A stretch of 59,695 bases of DNA, from contig NC_057718.1 of the NCBI RefSeq assembly GCF_004010195.1, positions 105,811,461-105,871,155 of the forward strand, in the 5' to 3' direction. The position numbers were made by a program, and so were the translations under genes. Positions 15,960-59,695 of this stretch are shown here, piece after piece (within the stretch, counting starts at the first letter, position 1; each line of letters begins with the position of its first letter). This DNA is from Chiloscyllium plagiosum (taxonomy: Eukaryota). The notes beneath the pieces were generated by a model. It worked only from the letters and a program-made list of their open reading frames with translations, was not told the DNA's origin and made no database searches.

Positions 15960-18015
15960 GCAATTATAATGCAATTAAGCAAGAATTAGGATGCAGAGTA
16001 TGGGTTATCAAAAAGCAGGGGATGGGGACAATCAAAATGTAGATCTGGTTTAAGGAACAGATATTGTGTGTCCTTGATAGCTATGTCCCTGTCAGGCAGG
16101 GAGGAAGTGATAAGGTAAGGGAACCGTGGTTTACTACAGAAATTGCATCTCTTGTTAAGCGGAAGAAGGAGGCTTATGTGTTGATGAGACAAGAGGATTC
16201 AGATGAAGCGATGGAGAGTTACAGATTAGGTAGGAAGGATTTAAAGAGAGAGTTAAGAAGAGCAAAGAGAGGACATGAGCAGCTTTTAGCAGGTAGAATA
16301 AAGGAAAATCCTAAAGCTTTCTATAGGTATGTGAGGAATAAAAGGATGATTAGGTAAGAATAGGGCCAGTCAAAAACAGAAGTGGGAAGTTGAGTGTGGA
16401 CCCTGTAGAGATTGGAGAAGTGCTAAACGAACATTTCTCATCCATTTTCACTCAGGAAAAGCAGAATATTGTAGAGGAGAAGAATGAGATATGAGACATT
16501 AGACTAGAAAGGATCGAGGTTAGTTACAAACAGGTGTTATCAATTCTCGAAGGACTGAAAGTAGACAAATCCCCTGGGCTGGATGAGATTTACCTGAGGA
16601 AGCTAGGGAGGAGCTAGCAGAGCCTTTGGCTTTGATATTAGAGTCGTCAATGTCTACAGATTTAGTACCTGAGGACTGGAGGATTGCAAATGTTTTGTTC
16701 TTGTTCAAGAAGGGCAGCAGAGATGACCCAGATAATTATAGACCAGTGAGCCTTACATCTGTTGTAGGAAAGATTTTGGAAAGGATTACAAGACATAGGA
16801 TTTATAATCACCTAGCAAGCAACAATTTGATTTCAGATAGTCAACATGGTTTCATCAAAGGCAGGTCGTGTCTCACAAACCTCTGAGTGTTTTGAGAAGG
16901 TGACCAAGCATGTAGATGAGGGTAGGGCAGTTGACGTGGTGTACATGGACCTCAGTAAAGCCTTTGATAAGGTTCCACATGGTAGGCTATTGGAGAAAAT
17001 GCAGAGGCATGGAATTGGGGGTGATTTAGCAGTTTGGATTAGAAATTGGCTTTCTGAAAGAAGGCAGCGAGTGGTGGTTGATGGAAAATATTCAGCATGG
17101 AGTCCGGATACTACTGGGGTGCCACAAGGATCTGTTTTGGGACCACTGCTGTTTGTCATTTTTATAAATTACTTAGACGCAAGCATAGGTGGATAGGTTA
17201 GTAAGTTTGCAGACGACACTAAAGTCAGTGGAGTAGTGGACAGTATGGAAGAATGTTGCAGGTTAAGGAGGGCTTGGATAAACTGCAGGATTGGGCTGAG
17301 AGGTGGCAAATGGAGTTCAATGCAGCTAAATGTGAGATGATTCACTTTGGCAAGAGTAACAGGAAGACAGAGTACTGGGTCAATGGAAAAATTCTTAGTA
17401 GTGTGAATGTGTGAATGTCCATGTACATAGATTCCTGAAAGTTGCCACCCAGGTTGATAGTGCTGCTAAGAAGGCATACGGTGTGTTAGGTTTCATAGGT
17501 AGAAGGATTGAGTTGTGGAGCCGCAATGTCATGCTGCAACTATACAAAATGCTAGTGCAGCCACACTTGGAACATTGTGTACAGTTCTGGTCGCCCCATT
17601 ACAGGAAAGATGTGGAAGCATTGGAAAAGGGGCAGAGGAGATTTACCAGAATGTTGCCTGGTCTGGAGGGAAGATCTTATGAGGAAAGGCTGACAGACTT
17701 GGGTCTGTCCTCATTGGAAAGAAGAAGGCTAAGAGGGGATTTGATAGAGACATACAAGATGATCAGAGGATTAGATAGCGCAGACAGTGAAAGTCTTTTT
17801 CCTAGGCTGATGATGTCAGCTTGTACTAGGGGGCATAATTACAAATTGAGGGGTGATAGATTTAAGATAGATGTCAGAGGCAGGTTCTTTACTCAGAGTG
17901 GTAAGGGCGTGGAATGCCCTACCTGCCAATGTAGTTAATTCAGCCACATTAGGGAGATTTAAACAATCCTTGGATAAGCACATGGATGATGATGGGATAC
18001 TGTAGGGGGGGTGAT
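15960..18015 (+). mobile_element. CR1 LINE ~2 kb, RT domain, degenerate
   Basis: ORFs 16064, 16626, 16846, 17411: [43 protein letters not shown]. Confidence 0.94.
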
Positions 18016-25463: not shown

Positions 25464-26762
25464 TAGAGTCATAGAGATGTACGGCATGGAAACAGACCCT
25501 TCGGTCCAACCTGTCCATGCTGACCAGATATCCCAACCCAATATAATCCCACCTGCCAGCACCCGGCCCATACCACTCAAAACCCTTCCAATTCATATAC
25601 CCATCCAAATGCCTCTTAAATGTTGCAATTGTACCAGCGTCCACCACCTCCTCTGGCAGCTCATTCCATACACATACCACCCTCTACGTATAAAAGGTCT
25701 CGTTTATATCTTTCCCCTCTCACCCTAAACCTATGCCCTCTAGTTCTAGACTCCCCGACCTCAGAGAAAAGACTTTGTCTACTTATCCTATCCATGTCCC
25801 TCATAATTTTGTAAACCTGTATAAGGTCACCCCTCAGCCTCTGACATACCAGGGAAAATAGCCCCAGCTTGTTCAGCCTCTCCCTATAGCTCAAATCCTT
25901 CAACACTGGCAACATCCCTGTAAATCTTCTCTGAACCCTTTCAAGTTTCACAACATCTTTCCGATATGAAGGAGACCAGAATTGCACGCAATATTACAAC
26001 AGTGGCCTAACCAATGTCCTGTACAGCCGCAACATGACCTCCCAACTCCTGTACTCAATACTCTGACCAATAAAGGAAAGCATACCAAATGCCTCCTTCA
26101 CTATCCTATCTACCTGAGGAGTTCGTGGTTGTGGCGTAAGCATGGATCTAGCACAGGATCATTTATGTAAATGACAAAATGTAGAGGGCCCAGCACCGAT
26201 CCTTGTGGCACTCCACTGGTCACAGGCCTCCAGTCTGAAAAACAACCCTCCACCACCACCCTCTGTCTTCTACCTTTGAGCCAGTTTTGTATCCAAATGG
26301 CTAGTTCTTCCTGCATGCCATGAGATCTAACCTTGCTAATCAGTTTCCCATGGGAAACTTTGTCGAACGCCTTACTGAAGTCCATATAGATCACATCTAC
26401 TGCTCTGCCCTCATCAAGCTTCTTTGTTACTTCTTCAAAAAACTCAATCAAGTTTGTGAGACATGATTTCCCACGCACAAAGCCATGTTGACTATCCCTA
26501 ATTAGTCCTTGCCTTTCCAAATACATGTCCATCCTGTCCTTTAGGATTCCCTCCAACAACTTGCCCACCACGGAGGTCAGACTCACCGGTCTATAGTTCC
26601 CTGGCTTGTCTTTACCGCCCTTCTTAAACAGTGGTACCATGTTTGCCAACCTCCAGTCTTTCGGTACCTCATCTGTGACTATCGATGATACAAATATCTC
26701 AGCAAGAGGCCCAGCAATCACTTGTCTGGCTTCCCACAGAATTCTCGGGTACACCTGATCAG
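25464..26762 (-). mobile_element. Young CR1, RT and 3' end, with an internal deletion and filler
   Basis: ORF 26110..26754 (214 aa, RT motifs) and ORFs 25661, 25453; ctctatgactcta tail. Confidence 0.95.
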
Positions 26763-27279
26763 GTTAGTCTTGGTACTAATGATTCCTCGTGTCCTGGTAA
26801 GTATTTATTATGTATTTTTCTGATGCTTAAGCATTAATTACATCAAGCTTGTCCTCCAGAGCACAATTAATTCTAATGGAGGTAAAACATAACAGGTCAG
26901 TTGCTCCTATTTCACCCACATTCAAACTCAATTAAAGCTCTGGACAAAAGGTAACAACTTCACAAAAAAAAAACAAGGGTCAGAAAATTACTCAAATTGT
27001 ATTCACAGTTATTTCCCTAAGTAAAAGGAGGTAGTTAAGAATCTGGGTCATAACTTGTAAGTTGGCAATCAGTTGTAAGTAGATTATTACAAAACTACTT
27101 TTCATTAAAAAGACGTCATATCAAAAGATCATGTTAAGATACATAGACTTACCATGAGGAACCAAAAGGTATGCAAACTGGTGCTATTAACCTTCAAATT
27201 TTTGTGAAATCTTAATACAAGCTACTGAAACAAATATTTTCAGTAATATCAACAGACTGGAGGCTAGAATCAGTTTAAA

Positions 27280-27960
27280 ACATAAACGTAGAAAAAAAAG
27301 GAGTAGGCTATTCAGCATTTCAAGCTTAGTCCACCAATCTTTATGATTATGGCTGATCAGTCAACTCTATTCTGAAGAAGGGTCACTGAACCTGAAACAT
27401 TAATTCTGTTTTCTCTCCACAGTTGTTGCCAGACCTGCTTAGTTTATCCAGCAATTTCTGATTTTGTTTCTGATTTCCAGCACTTGCAGTTTTGTTTTTG
27501 TTTGGTTTAGTGCCCTTTTCCTGCTTTCTTCCCTTATCATCTGAACTCATTAGACACAAGCATTAGATTTAACTCCAACCTGAAAATATTTAACAGTTTA
27601 GCATTTTCTGTGGCAGAGAGCTTAGTTCTCTCTGGGTGAAATAATTTCTCCTCATCTCAGGCCTAAATGGCCTACCCCACATCATCAGACTGTGACCCCT
27701 GGTTCTAGCCTCCCCAGTCATCAGGAACATGCAACCTGCATTTATCCCATCTTGTCCTGTTAGAATTTCATAGCTTTCTAGGAGATCCCCCTTCATTCTT
27801 CTAAACTCCTGTGAATATAGTACTAACCAATTGTCTCTATTCATATGTCAGTCCTGCCATCCCAGAAATCATTTTAGTAAACCTTCGCTGCATTCCCTCT
27901 ATAGAACATCTTTCCACTAATATGGAGACCAAAACTGCAACAACCCAGGTGTGGTCACAC
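27280..27960 (-). mobile_element. Old CR1 3' end interrupted by a PLE family C remnant (27369-27505, plus)
   Basis: ORFs 27590 and 27837; insert begins ttctgaagaagggtcactgaacctgaaac. Confidence 0.75.
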
Positions 27961-33659: not shown

Positions 33660-34168
33660 GGATGAAAGTTGAAGGTTCATTTTCAGGTGTTCCATCACCA
33701 TACCAGATAAGATCATCAGTTAGCCTCCTGTGATCATCAAAGAGCCACAAAAAAGACATGGCCCACTCTCACTAGTATCCTTACATACAGATGAGGAAGG
33801 ACACCACTTTGACTGGGACAACACATCCATCCAAGGACAAGCCAAACAGAGACACACATGAGAATTCCTAGAAGCATGGCTTTCCAACCGGAACTCTATC
33901 AACAAACACATCAACTTGGATCCCATTTACCTCTCTCTGAGAAAAAGAACAGCAAATGACATTTCCACAGGAAATGGCATCACCAACCCAAGGAATCCTA
34001 AACACATGAATAGAAAGCAGGTCACGAACACCAGTGCTTCACAGGAGACTCACTGAAGAGGTTACCTAGTATGGTGACGAAATGTCTTAAAATGAACCTT
34101 CCAGCCCAGTGAGCAAACTTACATCCAGAACCTCAACCCGAGCTACAAATTTTCTCAAAACTCACAAG
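33660..34168 (+). mobile_element. PLE family B: endonuclease C-terminus and terminal repeat, 5' inverted piece, 10-bp TSD
   Basis: Translates RATKRHGPLSLVSLHTDEEGHHFDWDNTSI...EFLEAW..N.NSINKH; tattgataat at 33650-33659 and 34169-34178. Confidence 0.85.
34050..34088 (+). ncRNA. Minimal hammerhead ribozyme motif (PLE family B)
   Basis: CUGAAGA-G-GUUACC-UAGUAU-GGUGAC-GAAAU-GUC. Confidence 0.55.
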
Positions 34169-39655: not shown

Positions 39656-40707
39656 TAGATTTTTTTTTAAAAGGTATATCCCAGTGCAATGTGAAATGCT
39701 ACAATGATATATCCAGAAAATATTTTACAAAATTCTAAACCCAAGGCAGTTTCAGAAACCTGGCTGCAAGGTGATCTGGATTGGGACCTGAATTTTGAAG
39801 GATACAGAACAACCTGCATAAGGGTTATATTAGACCTGCCATTGTGCAATGAAATAGAATAATTATCTCAGTGAAAACATTCCTCGGTAGCAGTGACCAT
39901 AACTGAATTTTATTTGACGAAGAGAGGAGTGCATCTGACAGTACTTTCTAAATGAAGGCGATTATGAGGATGTGAAAGCAGAGGTGGATGAAGTGAATTG
40001 GGAAATTAATTTAAAGAATAGATCAACAGAGGGGCAGCACTAGGCATTTAGTAGGATCGCCAGAAGATTCTGTAATTTATTTATTCTGTGCAAGAAAAAT
40101 TCCAAGAGACAGACCCACAATTCATGGCTAACCATAAATGTTAAGGATAATATCAAACATGTACAAAAAGCACAATTATAAAGACAGATATAAGGTCAAA
40201 AGATTAGACAGAAATTTTAAGAAGCTGAGAATAATCAAAGCCTGAAATATAAAAAATAGGTATGAGATTTTCTATAAATATTTGAAAAAGAAAAGTTAAC
40301 AAAATGAGCATTGGTCCTATAAAAAATGACTGAAGAATTAATGATGGAAAATAAGGAAATTGCAAACAAATTGAACAAGTACTTTGCATCGGTCTTCACA
40401 ATAAAGAACACAAGTAACATTTCAGAAGCAACAGTAAATCAGGCAATGGAACAAAGGGACGAACTCAGGAAAATACAATCACCAGAGAAGTGTAACTGAG
40501 TAAGCCATTGGGGCTGTGGATTGAGAAGTGTCCAGGCCCTGATGGACGTCAGCCTAGTTCAAAGAAATTGCTGGGGACACAGTTTTTAATTTTCCACAAC
40601 TCCCTTGATTTGGAGATGGTCACAATAGATCGGAAGATACCAAAAGTAACTTCTTCCATCAGAACAGGAGGAAGAAAGCAGGAAAGAAAATGTCAGGTAT
40701 CTTAATA

Positions 40708-40924
40708 AAAGCAAATTACTGCGAATGCTGGAATCTGAAACCAAAAGAGAAAATGCTGGAAAATCTCAGCAGGTCTGGCAGCATCTGTAAGAAGAGAAAA
40801 GAGCTGACGTTTCGAGTCAAACTGACCCTTTGTCAAAGCTTTTTTTAGCCTAGTATAAATACCTCCCTATTTCTCCCTTTTTTTTTAGCTTTGAGAAAGG
40901 GTCAGTTAGACTCGAAATGTCAGC
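40708..40924. mobile_element. 217-bp PLE family C mini-element with two back-to-back hammerhead motifs, 14-bp TSD
   Basis: caggtatcttaata at 40694-40707 and 40925-40938; 40802-40840 and 40887-40924 are inverted copies. Confidence 0.85.
40802..40840 (-). ncRNA. Minimal hammerhead ribozyme motif, U3-A8 variant (PLE family C)
   Basis: Minus strand AGCU-UUGACAA-A-GGGUC-AGUUU-GACUC-GAAAC-GUC-AGCU. Confidence 0.6.
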
Positions 40925-41656
40925 CAGGTATCTTAATATTGATCACAGAGAAAATATTAATAACTATTAAAGAAGTTGTAATCAGGGGCTTAGAAAATTT
41001 CAAGATAATCAGATAGACTCAACATGGTTTTGTGAAAGGACAGTCACGTTTGACCAATGCATTTGGAGTTCTTTGAGGTAACACATGCTATGAATAAAGG
41101 GGAATTGGCGAATGTGCTGTACTTAGATTTCCAGAAGGCATTTAATAAAGTGCCACACCAAAGGTTATTGCGGAAATAAAATCTCACGGTGTAGGGAGTC
41201 ACATATTGACCTGGATAGAAGATTGAATATTTGATAGGAGGCAGAGAGCGGGCCTTAATTAATCTTTTTCCAAGTTGATAAGGCAATGATTGTTGTACCA
41301 CATGGATCAGTACCAGGATCTCAACAATACACAATTTATATAAATCGCTTGAATGAAAGGACAGAGACATGGTTGCCAAATCTGCCATGACACAAAACTA
41401 GGTAGCAAAGTAAGTTGTGCAGAAGACACAAGAAACGTACAAAAATATATAAAAAGATTAAATGAATGGGGAAAGATGTAACAAATGGTGTACAATGTGG
41501 AAAAATGTAAAACTGTCAATTTTGAAAAAAAAATTCTTTAAATGGTGAGAGATTGCAAAACTGAGATGCAGAGGAATCTGGGCATTCTCGTGCATGAATC
41601 ACATAAGGGTAGTATGCAGATACATCAAACAACTGGGGAATTCCACAGAATGTAAT

Positions 41657-47302: not shown

Positions 47303-47306
47303 AGGT
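47273..47306 (-). ncRNA. Minimal hammerhead ribozyme motif (PLE family D)
   Basis: Minus strand CUGAAGA-A-GGGC-UUAU-GCCC-GAAAC-GUC; core and stem II intact, helix I weak; activity untested. Confidence 0.65.
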
Positions 47307-55079: not shown

Positions 55080-55905
55080 GGTGAAAGTGAGGACTGCAGA
55101 TGCTGCAGATCAGAGTCAAAAAGTGTGGCGCTGGAAAAGCATAGCAAGTCAGGCAGCATCTGAGGAGCAGGAGAATCGACAATTCTGATGAAGGGCTAAT
55201 GCCTGAATTGTGGCAGGCAAGGGGTCTGAGAGATAATGGGGGAGGGGAGGTGAGGAAACTGGTGAAATTGACATTGATGCAGTGTGGTTGGAGGGTCCCA
55301 AAGCGAAAGATGAGGCATCCTTCCTCCAGACATCGAGTGGCTTGGATTTGGCAGTGGAGGAGAACCAGGATTTGCATGTCCTTGGCGAAGTGGGAGGGGA
55401 AGTTGAAGTGGTCAGCCACAGGGCGGATGGGGTTGTTTGATGCTTGTCGCCCAAAGATGTTCCCTGAAACATTCCATGAGTTGGCATCCTGTCTCCCCAA
55501 TATACAGGAGACCACATTGAGAGCAACGGACACAGTAGATGGGGTGATTGGATGTGCAGGAAAATCTCTGCTGGATGTGAAAAGATCCTTTGGGGCCTTG
55601 AATGGAGGTGAGAGGGGAGGTACGGGCGCAGGGTTTACACCTCTTGCAGTGGCAGGGGAAGGGGAAAGGTGCCAGGAGTGGAGGGTGGGTTGGTGGGGGG
55701 TGTGGACCTAATTAGGGAATCGCGGAGGGAATGGTCTCTGCAGAATGCTGATAGGGGTGGGGAGAGAAGTATATCTCTGGTGGTGGGGTCTGATTGAAGA
55801 TGGCGGAATTGACGAAAGATAATGCACCGTATCCAGAGATTAGCTCCTGGTCCTCAGATACTGCTAACCCGCTGTGCTTTACCAGCGCCACACTTTTTGA
55901 CTCTT
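55080..55905 (-). mobile_element. PLE family D with GIY-YIG region and inverted terminal pieces
   Basis: Minus strand IYCVRCSQCGLLYIGETG and VADHFN...LEEGCLIFRFGTLQPH; 55100-55165 is inverted relative to 55850-55905. Confidence 0.85.
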
Positions 55906-55924: not shown

Positions 55925-56878
55925 ACTGAATCCACTCAACACTGGAACCCCCCCAAAGGTGCGTACTCAGCCCCCTACTGTACTCACTGCATACCCATGA
56001 CTGCATCACCAAATACCAGACTAATGCCATTTACAAGTTTGCTGATGACACCACCATAGTTGGGCGAATTTCAGATGGTGACAAAACAGACTACAGATGG
56101 GATGTGGAAGACCTAGAAAAATGGTGCTATCAATGCAGGCAAAACCAAGGAACTCATTATTGACTTTCAGCGGGATGTTACTCATGCCCCCCCACCCACC
56201 CCCCACACACACACACACACATTGACAGCACAGAGGTCGAACGAGTGGAAAGTGTTAAGCTCCTGGGAGTGGTCATCCACAACAAGCTTTCTTGGACTCT
56301 TCATGTGGACACACTGGTTACAAAGGCCCAACAATATTTCTTCTTCCTCAGGCAGCTGAGGAAATTTGGCATGACAGCGAATACCCGTGTCAACTTTTAT
56401 AGGTGTGCCATTGACAGCATTCTTTCTGGATGTACTACTACTTGGTATGGCAACTGTACCATTCAAGATCGGAGACGGTTACTCAGAGTGGTGAACTCGG
56501 CCCAGACAATCACAAAGGCCAACCTCCATCTACCAGGCCCGCTGTCAAGGAAAGGCCGCCAGCATTCTCAAAGATTAATCCCAACATGGCAATGTTTTTC
56601 TACAACCTCTACCATCGAGGAGAAGGTACAGAAGCCTGAATACATGCACCAGCCGGTTTCATAACAGTTTCTACCCTACTGTTGTTAGAATATTGAATGG
56701 AATCACAAATTCTTAACATTCTCCTGGACCAGTGATTTTGTTTTTGCTGCTGTTTACCTTTTATTTACTATCTAAGCTACTTAACTATGTGATCTGCCTG
56801 TATTGCTCGCAAGACAAAGCTTTTCACTGTGCCTTGGTACACTTGACAATAAATTCAATTCAAATTCAAATTCAAGTC
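55925..56878 (+). mobile_element. Rex1/Babar-like LINE, RT 3' half and tail
   Basis: VLSPLLYSLHTHDC...YKFADDTTIVGRI; ORF 56245 KAQQYFFFLRQLRKFGM...FYRCAIDSILSGCTTTWYGN; tail aataaa(ttcaaa)n. Confidence 0.88.
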
Positions 56879-56879
56879 A

Positions 56880-58440
56880 ATCAATCAACTTGGTATCATC
56901 TTGTAAATCCTCACCCTACACCCTCTTAAGAGCCCCAACATCAGTTTATAATATGGTGACCAGAACTATGTGCAGTACTCTAAGTGGCATCCAACCAAAC
57001 TGCAAGATTTTACGTAACTTTCCCATTTTAGAACTTTATCTCTAGAAATAAAGTTTGGATCTCCCTTTTTCTTTAAGGCCTTACTCACCCATGCTACATC
57101 TTTTAAAATGGCCTGTGTATATTTACTCAAAACCCTTTTGTCTTATACTCAAGACTTAAACCTTGCAAGTGATAAGTCACCTCCTTGTTCAACCTACAAA
57201 AACATACTAGCTCATTTACCTGCTTTGAACTTAATTTGCCAATTTGTCTATTTGTAAATTTAACAACCTCTTATAATCTGAAGTTCTCAGCATAAACTAT
57301 TTTCTGCCCCTCCCTAAATCTAGGTGTCATCATGAATTTAGAAATTGTTTTCAATTCCAAAGTCTAAATCATTATTGCTGAAAAAGTGTTGCTGGAAAAG
57401 CGCAGCAGGTCAGGCAGCATCCAAGGAGCAGGAGAATCGACGTTTCGGGCATGAGCCCTTCTTCAGTAATCTGAAGAAGGGCTCATGCCCAAAATGTTGA
57501 TTCTCCTGCTCCTTAGATGCTGCCTGACCTGCTGCGCTTTTCCAGCAACACATTTGCAGCTCTGATCTCCAGCATCTGCAGTCCTCACTTTCTCCTCTAA
57601 ATCATTATTGCAAATTATAAACAGCAATGATACTTCCCACCATCTTGTGATCTGAATAACCCCATTTGACTCCTACTCTCTGCCTTAAATTCAGCCAGAA
57701 ATCCATTCACTTACTTGTTTGCCAACTCCACATTTTCAGAACTTATTCATTAGTCTATCATGGTCTATCTTAGCAAATGCCTAGTCCAGATAAATTGCGC
57801 TTGCTGCATTCCTGTTATCTACTCTCACTTATCTCCTAAAATTTAATACAATTAAACAAGATTTTCCCTTCTGAAATCCATGCTGACTACTCATTGTATT
57901 ATTTGTCGTCTCTAGACATTCTTCTGTTCTTTTGCTTTGTCGGGTTACTATTATTTTCCCTTACCAATGATAAAATGACTGGTCTGTAAAGCCCTTAACA
58001 CATTCTATCGCTATTCTTAAATATCAGAACTGCAGCAGCTATCTTCCATTCCTCTAGCACTACACTTTTTCTCATAACTAATTATTCAGGACTCCATATT
58101 ACACTTATTAGCAAAATCGCAGTGTATGAGATAAAAGGAAGTGTGTGGGTGCAGTATTGGTCAAGGGGTAGAAAACAGAGTTATGGTAAGGGCTATTTTT
58201 CAAACTGCAGTGAGGTGTACAGTGGAGTTTCCCTATAGATCTGCACTAGGACCACTGCTATCTTTGATACATATCAATGACTTGGAATTGGAAACACAGG
58301 ATGTATATGCATATTGTAAATGCATATTGTACAGTGTAAAACTCTAAGGAAGAACATAAAACAGTTAAAGTCACTCATGGAATAGGTAGTCATAAGGCAG
58401 ATGTAAATCAATGGGGAAGATAGTAAAGTATAACTGGTTT
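56880..58440. mobile_element. Old CR1 fragments (minus 56880-58070, plus 58090-58440)
   Basis: ggtgaccagaactatgtgcagtactc; ORF 58141 SALGPLLSLIHINDL. Confidence 0.72.
57379..57595. mobile_element. 217-bp palindromic PLE family D mini-element, 16-bp TSD
   Basis: tctaaatcattattgc at 57363-57378 and 57596-57611; ~90-bp inverted arms around a taat loop (57467-57470). Confidence 0.9.
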
Positions 58441-58867: not shown

Positions 58868-59695
58868 ATTCTGGATCAGTGGTGCTGGAAGAGCACAGCA
58901 ATTCAGGCAGCATCCGAGGACAGGCATTTTAAAAGTTGCATTCTCGGGTTAGCTGTTAACAATGGTGATAGCTGGACAATATGTTGAAGGTTCTGGATCA
59001 GTGGTGCTGGAAGAGCACAGCAGTTCAGGCAGCATCCAAGGAGCTTTGAAATCGACGTTTCCCGCAAAAGCCCTTCATCAGGAATAAAGGCAGAGAGCCT
59101 GAAGCGTGGAGAGATATGCTTGAGGAGGGTGGGGGTGGGGAGAAAGTAGCATAGAGTACAATAGGTGAGTGGGGGAGGAGATGAAGATGATAGGTCAGGG
59201 AGGAGAGGGTTGAGTGGATAGTTGGAAAAGGAGCTAGGCAGGTCGGACAAGTCCGGATCGGTCAAGGGGAGAGTGCGGTCTGGAAGTTTGAAACTAGGAT
59301 GAGGTGGGGGAAGGGGAAATGAGGAAGCTGTTGAAGTCCACATTGATGCCCTGGGGTTGAAGTGTTCCGAGGCGGAAGATGAGGCGTTCTTCCTCCAGGC
59401 GTCTGGTGGTGAGGAAGTGGCGGTGAAGGAGGCCCAGGACCTCCATGTCCTCGGCAGAGTGGGAGGGGGAGTTGAAATGTTGGGCCTTCCACATCCATCA
59501 AAGTTTTACCTGCAAATCCACTAACATCATTTATTGTATCCGTTGCTCCCGAGGCGGTCTCCTCTACATTGGGGAGACTGGACACCTCCTAGCAGAGCGC
59601 TTTAGGGAACATCTCCGAGACACCCGCACCAATCAACCAAACCGCCCCGTGGCACAACATTTCAACTCCCCCTCCCACTCTACCGAGGACATGGA
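58868..59695 (-). mobile_element. PLE family D-type 3' end (minus to ~59484) with a duplicated terminus and an inverted GIY-YIG segment (plus, 59485-end)
   Basis: ORF 59294 AQHFNSPSHSAEDMEVLGLLH...LEEERLIFRLGTLQPQGIN; plus strand IIYCIRCSRGGLLYIGETG; ttctggatcagtggtgctggaagagcacagc at 58869 and 58991. Confidence 0.9.

Follow-up and report, generated by a model that had tools for sequence, protein, structure and literature searches.

Minimal hammerhead ribozymes of metazoan Penelope-like elements (PLEs) are reported in the main-text portion of Cervera & de la Pena (2014, PMC4209133), including a U3-A8 variant of the Schistosoma element Cercyon; about 1,300 U3-A8 motif hits are counted in Schistosoma. 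The same text describes opposite-strand pairs of these hammerheads 100-700 bp apart, mostly truncated single copies, and low activity in vitro, and contains no shark example. Neither the U3-A8 swap nor the layout is new; U3-A8 and opposite-strand pairs were published there in 2014. Elsewhere, an inverted 5'-truncated copy adjoining the pLTR is given as typical of PLEs (Craig et al. 2021, PMC8557442), head-to-head inverted pLTRs, TSDs of 8-10 bp and a pLTR TATA box are described (Arkhipova et al. 2013, PMC3846280), and the hammerhead of the Anolis Poseidon element PAc works with protein assistance and is not needed for insertion in vitro (Frangieh et al. 2024, PMC11167929). One chondrichthyan genome has also been reported to contain non-LTR retrozymes (Li et al., bioRxiv 10.64898/2026.07.22.740005). 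We found no published account of a shark U3-A8 PLE family, in weak searches, one of which gave a single review that uses 'shark' only as an etymology and another of which was swamped by papers on hammerhead sharks; the supplements of PMC4209133 might contain one. An earlier note on the locus described here, made from its sequence, had taken as established that C3-G8 is a tertiary pair of the active fold and that U3-A8 is a tolerated swap. The literature agrees on both points: excerpts of PMC3884650 document the C3-G8 pair, and those of Perreault et al. (2011, PMC3088659) report natural U3-A8 covariation that is active in vitro. When a type III hammerhead was screened for pairwise changes, however, rescue was obtained by the C3G/G8C swap only (PMC9901934), a result that speaks against selection as the cause of U3-A8.

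The locus lies in a window of 59,695 nt, the whole stretch of DNA that was analysed (Chiloscyllium plagiosum GCF_004010195.1, NC_057718.1:105,811,461-105,871,155, forward strand). A 217-bp insert (40708-40924) interrupts a decayed CR1-type LINE reverse transcriptase (RT) fragment (40627-41385, +), identified by nhmmer through its likeness to other RT copies of the window, one of which (26110-26763) has a Pfam RVT_1 match; the CR1 label is our presumption from resemblance. The insert is flanked by an exact 14-bp target-site duplication (TSD; 40694-40707 and 40925-40938, +), which occurs only these two times within the whole window and has a crude chance probability of 6e-6 over 30x30 offsets; by reading of the sequence, it is possibly 2 bp longer with one mismatch. 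When the insert and one repeat were deleted in silico, the single remaining repeat restored the host LINE colinearly, and the empty site aligned without a gap with the RT copy 16673-17210 (nhmmer E 1.3e-20; ungapped identity 36/75, a level matched by 0.95% of 2000 random window positions). The gapless alignment and the exact repeat indicate a true insertion into a dead LINE; the 217-bp insert with a perfect 14-bp TSD, proposed in the earlier note, is thus borne out by the exact repeat, the window scan and the empty-site alignment. Nine target bases (40688-40696, overlapping the left TSD) are identical to plus-arm bases 40915-40923 around a predicted cut site, which may reflect microhomology for a second priming event, or chance combined with CpG decay at 40918. 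The window is full of RT-bearing LINE fragments and tRNA-like SINE copies, and no host gene was identified in it. An ORF fragment at 56164-56664 (+) matches Pfam ALKBH8_N (E 2e-8), which we take to mark the ORF end of a Rex/Babar-type LINE rather than a host gene.

The insert consists of two pieces joined head-to-head at 40840/40841, 133 nt on the minus strand and 84 nt on the plus strand. The first (40708-40840, -), recognised by its identity to window copies and by sequencing depth, is a Penelope-like 3' end module, in which a minimal hammerhead is followed by a downstream segment of about 95 nt. In global alignment it is 74% identical to the copy at 27372 and 65% identical to the ones at 47304 and 57471, all three with canonical cores. 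The descriptor scan and the predicted fold define the minus hammerhead (40802-40840) as a minimal type I motif with a U3-A8 core, an extra A after position 9 and a palindromic ACGU, and place its predicted cut between 40806 and 40805. The second piece begins with inverted upstream family sequence (40841-40886, +; depth 2e4-7e4, with opposite-strand joints) and ends with a second hammerhead, inverted and decayed (40887-40924, +), whose predicted cut lies at 40921/40922, the piece stopping 3 nt beyond. The two arms (40803-40840, -, and 40887-40924, +) are identical at 35 of 38 positions. Their cores read UUGACAA on the minus strand (position 3 at 40836, position 8 at 40831) and UUGAGAA on the plus strand (40891 and 40896), with positions 3 and 8 both changed relative to the CUGAAGA of 27372, exactly as had been noticed earlier. 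Both arms contain the core CUGANGA...GAAA...UH in its U3-A8 covariant form, as well as the extra base between 9 and 10.1 and the G10.1-C11.1 pair, and helix II pair probabilities are mostly >=0.98 when each arm is folded in isolation. The minus arm keeps the palindromic ACGU at 15.2-16.2 (computed self-duplex -1.7 kcal/mol). In the plus arm, the palindrome is broken to AUGU by a T at the CpG site 40918 (computed self-duplex +2.6 kcal/mol), and part of helix I is missing. As an Rfam scan gave 9 weak matches at E<=10, all unrelated and none a hammerhead, it is this anatomy that supports the ribozyme call.

Several short signals adjoin the hammerheads. A TATA-like box at 40854-40861 (+), 33 nt 5' of helix I, may act as a promoter. 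A pyrimidine run followed by AG directly before the plus helix I (within 40854-40890) also resembles a splice acceptor, and a second acceptor-like run, followed by ATG, lies directly after the minus hammerhead (40785-40802 region, -); these runs beside both hammerheads may be compared with Drosophila Penelope, in which an intron ends at helix I.

Four of the 24 listed public sequencing runs were aligned to the locus at 80% likeness, three of them contig sets, from organisms A, B and C, and the fourth a set of RNA reads from A; organisms D-G, which share only 0.11-0.13 of the sequence words, contribute no evidence. Summed contig depth, which marks abundance and is not a copy number, reaches 1e4-4e6 over the element versus about 1e1-5e2 in the adjoining flank bins, marking the insert family as very abundant in all three organisms. 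Contigs of organism C extend across the left junction by 35 nt and across the right one by 70 nt (contig 16), with about 4% differences. The same site is therefore occupied in a second organism, and the insertion is older than the split between A and C. Junction overlaps in organism B (21 and 30 nt) fall below the 31-nt bridging rule. The family letter differs from that of the locus at 40724, 40792, 40819 and 40895 (96-99% of depth). At 40895, 97.5-98.6% of the depth is C in the three runs, so that the plus-arm G at N7 is a private mutation and the family core is UUGACAA. Of the cores reported as UUGANAA, the swap proved, by the tally given below, to be the family state, and the G at N7 of the plus copy did not. 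Among the 15 listed joints of 123, 4 are strand switches that fit a colinear parent, 10 are other head-to-head joints at differing points and 1 goes back; 8 of the 10 listed head-to-head joints land at 40887-40892, the front of helix I. Opposite-strand joints at 40839-41/40883-86 place the upstream segment colinear with the hammerhead in other copies, showing that the normal family layout is upstream segment, hammerhead and tail on one strand. No contig piece among those listed bridges the inversion junction 40840/40841, a result compatible with a unique as well as a recurrent junction.

Core positions 3 and 8 lie outside the 40 listed rows (72 others), and their shares were deduced from the tally of change types, assuming a 3% cut in that tally, an assumption that agrees with what run X1 shows for A>C, A>T, T>G and C>G. 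In X1, the listing includes every one of the 5 T>C places at >=3%, and neither 40891 nor 40831 is among them, so C3 in the plus arm and G8 in the minus arm each stay below 3%; one A>G place is among those not listed. The bounds are looser in run X9, where a single T>C place and a single A>G place are unlisted, and in X13, where one T>C and two A>G places are. The deduction covers contigs similar enough to the hammerhead, sister families being clipped before it. We infer that U3-A8 is the family state, neither private nor mixed with mismatched forms. By this indirect tally in three contig runs, the haplotype count advised earlier found mismatched forms to be rare and U3-A8 not to be private to the locus, that is, neither of the two outcomes that would have spoken against the earlier reading. 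The CpG of helix III is heavily decayed, with G>A at 40919 in 18-30% of the depth and C at 40918 in only 34-49%, figures subject to a bias in arm assignment. A degenerate hammerhead-plus-tail pattern with positions 3 and 8 left free matched nothing in the collections of viruses, prokaryotic genomes and metagenomes.

The two arms derive from one very abundant family, and, as the earlier note had cautioned, share one origin and are not independent evidence. That note had also treated the insert as an element with two divergent hammerheads. The head-to-head hammerhead-type motifs are real; the two-ribozyme element very probably is not, the insert being most likely a 133-bp PLE end module with an inverted 84-bp piece. 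A mobile 217-bp unit resembling a MITE or a retrozyme, with ribozymes that act on both sense and antisense RNA, would account for the clean TSD that encloses both arms, for the equal length of another insert in the window and for the recurrence of head-to-head junctions in organisms A, B and C. We nevertheless consider it very improbable. In a test for a MITE or DNA transposon, terminal inverted repeats at both ends were absent, the left arm lying 95 bp inside the element, so that on this side the inverted repeat is internal. The listed junctions vary between copies, and the insert of equal length belongs to another family with different breakpoints. Moreover, the arms silence each other: in predicted folds of read-through RNA from either strand, they pair together, with a hammerhead helix probability of 0.0 and an opening cost of 28-36 kcal/mol, and, being on opposite strands, they offer each other no dimer partner within one RNA. 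Since both arms fold into one long hairpin in such RNA, the locus is probably inert, which on this modelling is the most likely state of this copy. A transcript that started immediately ahead of the plus hammerhead would stay clear of the hairpin (computed opening cost 1.5 kcal/mol), but the helix III palindrome of that hammerhead is broken. In the RNA run of organism A (about 2% read), 588 of the 590 aligned reads aligned only partly and no depth was seen in bins 40580-40698 and 40937-40987; the reads come from other family copies and are uninformative on this locus.

The insert of equal length (57379-57595, within 57363-57611) served as a control case. It is independent, carries canonical CUGAAGA cores in both arms and has a 16-bp TSD; its arms, each starting 3-4 nt ahead of the core, pair into an almost perfect hairpin about 90 bp long. 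As an unrelated canonical-core family makes an equal insert there, the head-to-head layout is generic, and its occurrence with canonical cores supports the reading of our locus as a PLE insertion. Other relatives lie nearby. A sister hammerhead-plus-tail module at 59081 (-), with the core CUGAUGA, lies downstream of an endonuclease-like fragment. At 58880-59695, the upstream part of the endonuclease-like fragment (about 59487-59638) is inverted, with a partial second tail at about 58882-58914, and 55083-55200 contains another inversion junction, where a minus-strand tail meets a short, inverted piece of hammerhead close to the cut site, beside a longer endonuclease-like fragment. For the 27-kb and 55-kb copies no TSD was found, and the 47-kb copy has only 10-bp candidates with one mismatch. 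A further hammerhead-like family with a longer helix II has four copies in the window, at 34053 (+), 54470 (+), 9313 (-) and 33719 (-).

We conclude that the locus is very probably a PLE end that was inserted in 5'-truncated form, accompanied by an inverted piece next to it. The PLE insertion features are present, namely a hammerhead-bearing pLTR end, an inverted head-to-head 5' copy and a TSD. By analogy with PLE biology, a GIY-YIG endonuclease would have introduced nicks staggered by 14 nt into AT-rich DNA, reverse transcription would have run from the tail up to the front edge of helix I, giving 133 nt, and a second priming or a template switch would have added 84 nt in the opposite orientation. 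On this reading, the source element carried U3-A8 as a fixed state beforehand. No RT or GIY-YIG ORF was found at this locus or linked to the U3-A8 family, and Pfam gave no match on the 7 Penelope-suspect fragments among the 10 fragments scanned. As a lead, fragment 55412-55711, a homologue of the endonuclease-like fragment that precedes the module at 59081, is similar to an atlas cluster that has GIY-YIG in 16% of its members; it, too, is blank in Pfam.

What served as template is a separate matter. The hammerhead plus tail could be a non-autonomous, SINE-like element with a TATA promoter that starts its transcription at helix I; its cDNA would then have been linked to an inverted segment of some longer template. 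The position of the TATA-like box 33 nt before helix I fits such a start, as do the TATA boxes described for pLTRs in PMC3846280, the copies at 47304, 57466 and 57471, which by eye appear to start a few bases before the core, and the joints at 40887-40892 (8 of 10 listed skip joints; 9 of 12 rows in a second tabulation). Equal ends would also arise if the RT stopped at structured RNA, though, and the joint clustering carries no control for mapping bias. No pile-up of read starts or ends is listed in the RNA run (about 2% read), from a library type that is poor at showing starts. We therefore hold the SINE-like origin of the template to be somewhat unlikely. It concerns the template only and is compatible with a PLE insertion.

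The earlier note had read the double change as a sign of selection for catalysis in the parent element. Since copies of one source that have diverged by 2-3% would give the same result without selection, the purity of U3-A8 in the family reflects descent from one source. The conserved core and the complementary swap lend selection modest support, set against an easy CpG route to G8A. In the swap, which could be neutral, G8A would have arisen at the C7pG8 CpG of a source copy and C3U by chance, and the pair would have been amplified since insertion needs no cleavage. The family C at N7 indeed makes 7-8 a CpG in a G8 ancestor, helix III CpG decay is heavy in the family, a lone C3U occurs in a dead copy of another family (54470, with a mismatched U3/G8 core), and catalytically dead hammerheads were no bar to anole PLE insertion in vitro (PMC11167929). 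Against neutrality, the other 11 of the 13 core positions are canonical despite 26-35% module divergence from three sister copies, for which the rough neutral chance is 0.02-0.09, and the chance that the two changes form a complementary pair is 0.006, or 0.06 if G8A came first at the CpG; these estimates are crude, ignoring copy decay and using motifs picked for intact cores. The same swap also recurs in Schistosoma PLEs, according to the main-text portion of PMC4209133. We give neutral drift an appreciable but less than even chance, and lean towards selection for a working core in the source lineage. Since U3-A8 keeps the core pair between 3 and 8, it is, in our view, somewhat more likely than not that the source RNA could cleave, as a protein-assisted dimer through the ACGU palindrome.

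The swap may, on fold modelling, also relieve a misfold onto its own cut site. A canonical core combined with C7 and with AG following the cut would be an exact reverse complement of the six bases spanning its own cut site, positions 15.2-1.2, and is computed to pair with all of them; the cost of reaching the cleavage-competent fold decreases from 6.1 kcal/mol (C3G8) to 5.2 (U3G8), 3.4 (C3A8) and 2.6 (U3A8), as calculated for a monomer with a nearest-neighbour model that has no tertiary terms. The U3A8 arm still mispairs G5 with C17 (predicted probability 0.93). The idea is weakened by the canonical copies 9313 and 33719, which have 5 and 4 such Watson-Crick pairs, at least as many as the U3-A8 arms. 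That U3-A8 was selected for keeping the 3-8 pair while relieving a trap specific to the C7 canonical core of this family is unlikely. If true, it would amount to in vivo evidence that cleavage is required of minimal PLE hammerheads, despite its dispensability for insertion in vitro (PMC11167929). Misfolding that differs among core variants would confound simple cleavage assays of the revertants.

Taken together, the locus is an ordinary fossil insertion, and its interest lies in the family, a natural vertebrate U3-A8 minimal hammerhead beside canonical sister families in one genome, which makes a convenient set for asking whether PLE hammerheads face selection for cleavage. Non-LTR retrozymes are, like this insert, non-coding PLE-derived repeats with type I hammerheads, but form head-to-tail tandem arrays, in contrast to the head-to-head inverted arms seen here (bioRxiv 10.64898/2026.07.22.740005). 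PAc of Anolis shares a pLTR hammerhead located 5' of the start of reverse transcription, an AT-rich target and ATT at the tail junction; it differs in having C3-G8 and an ORF starting at helix II, no ORF having been linked to the present family (PMC11167929). Endonuclease-positive PLE inserts resemble the locus in the 5'-truncated plus inverted copy, the tail at one end only, the TSD and the TATA box, and differ from it in that the present insert totals 217 bp and has no ORF (PMC3846280, PMC8557442). The 14-bp TSD, compared with 8-10 bp for rotifer PLEs (PMC3846280), counts against the PLE reading. By contrast with the published minimal hammerheads of metazoan PLEs, this one has a vertebrate host, with repeats resembling those of a cartilaginous fish, and a helix II of 5-6 bp instead of 7-8; with them it shares the type I core, the opposite-strand pairs, the extra base at 9/10.1, G10.1-C11.1, the palindromic 15.2-16.2 and U3-A8 itself (PMC4209133).
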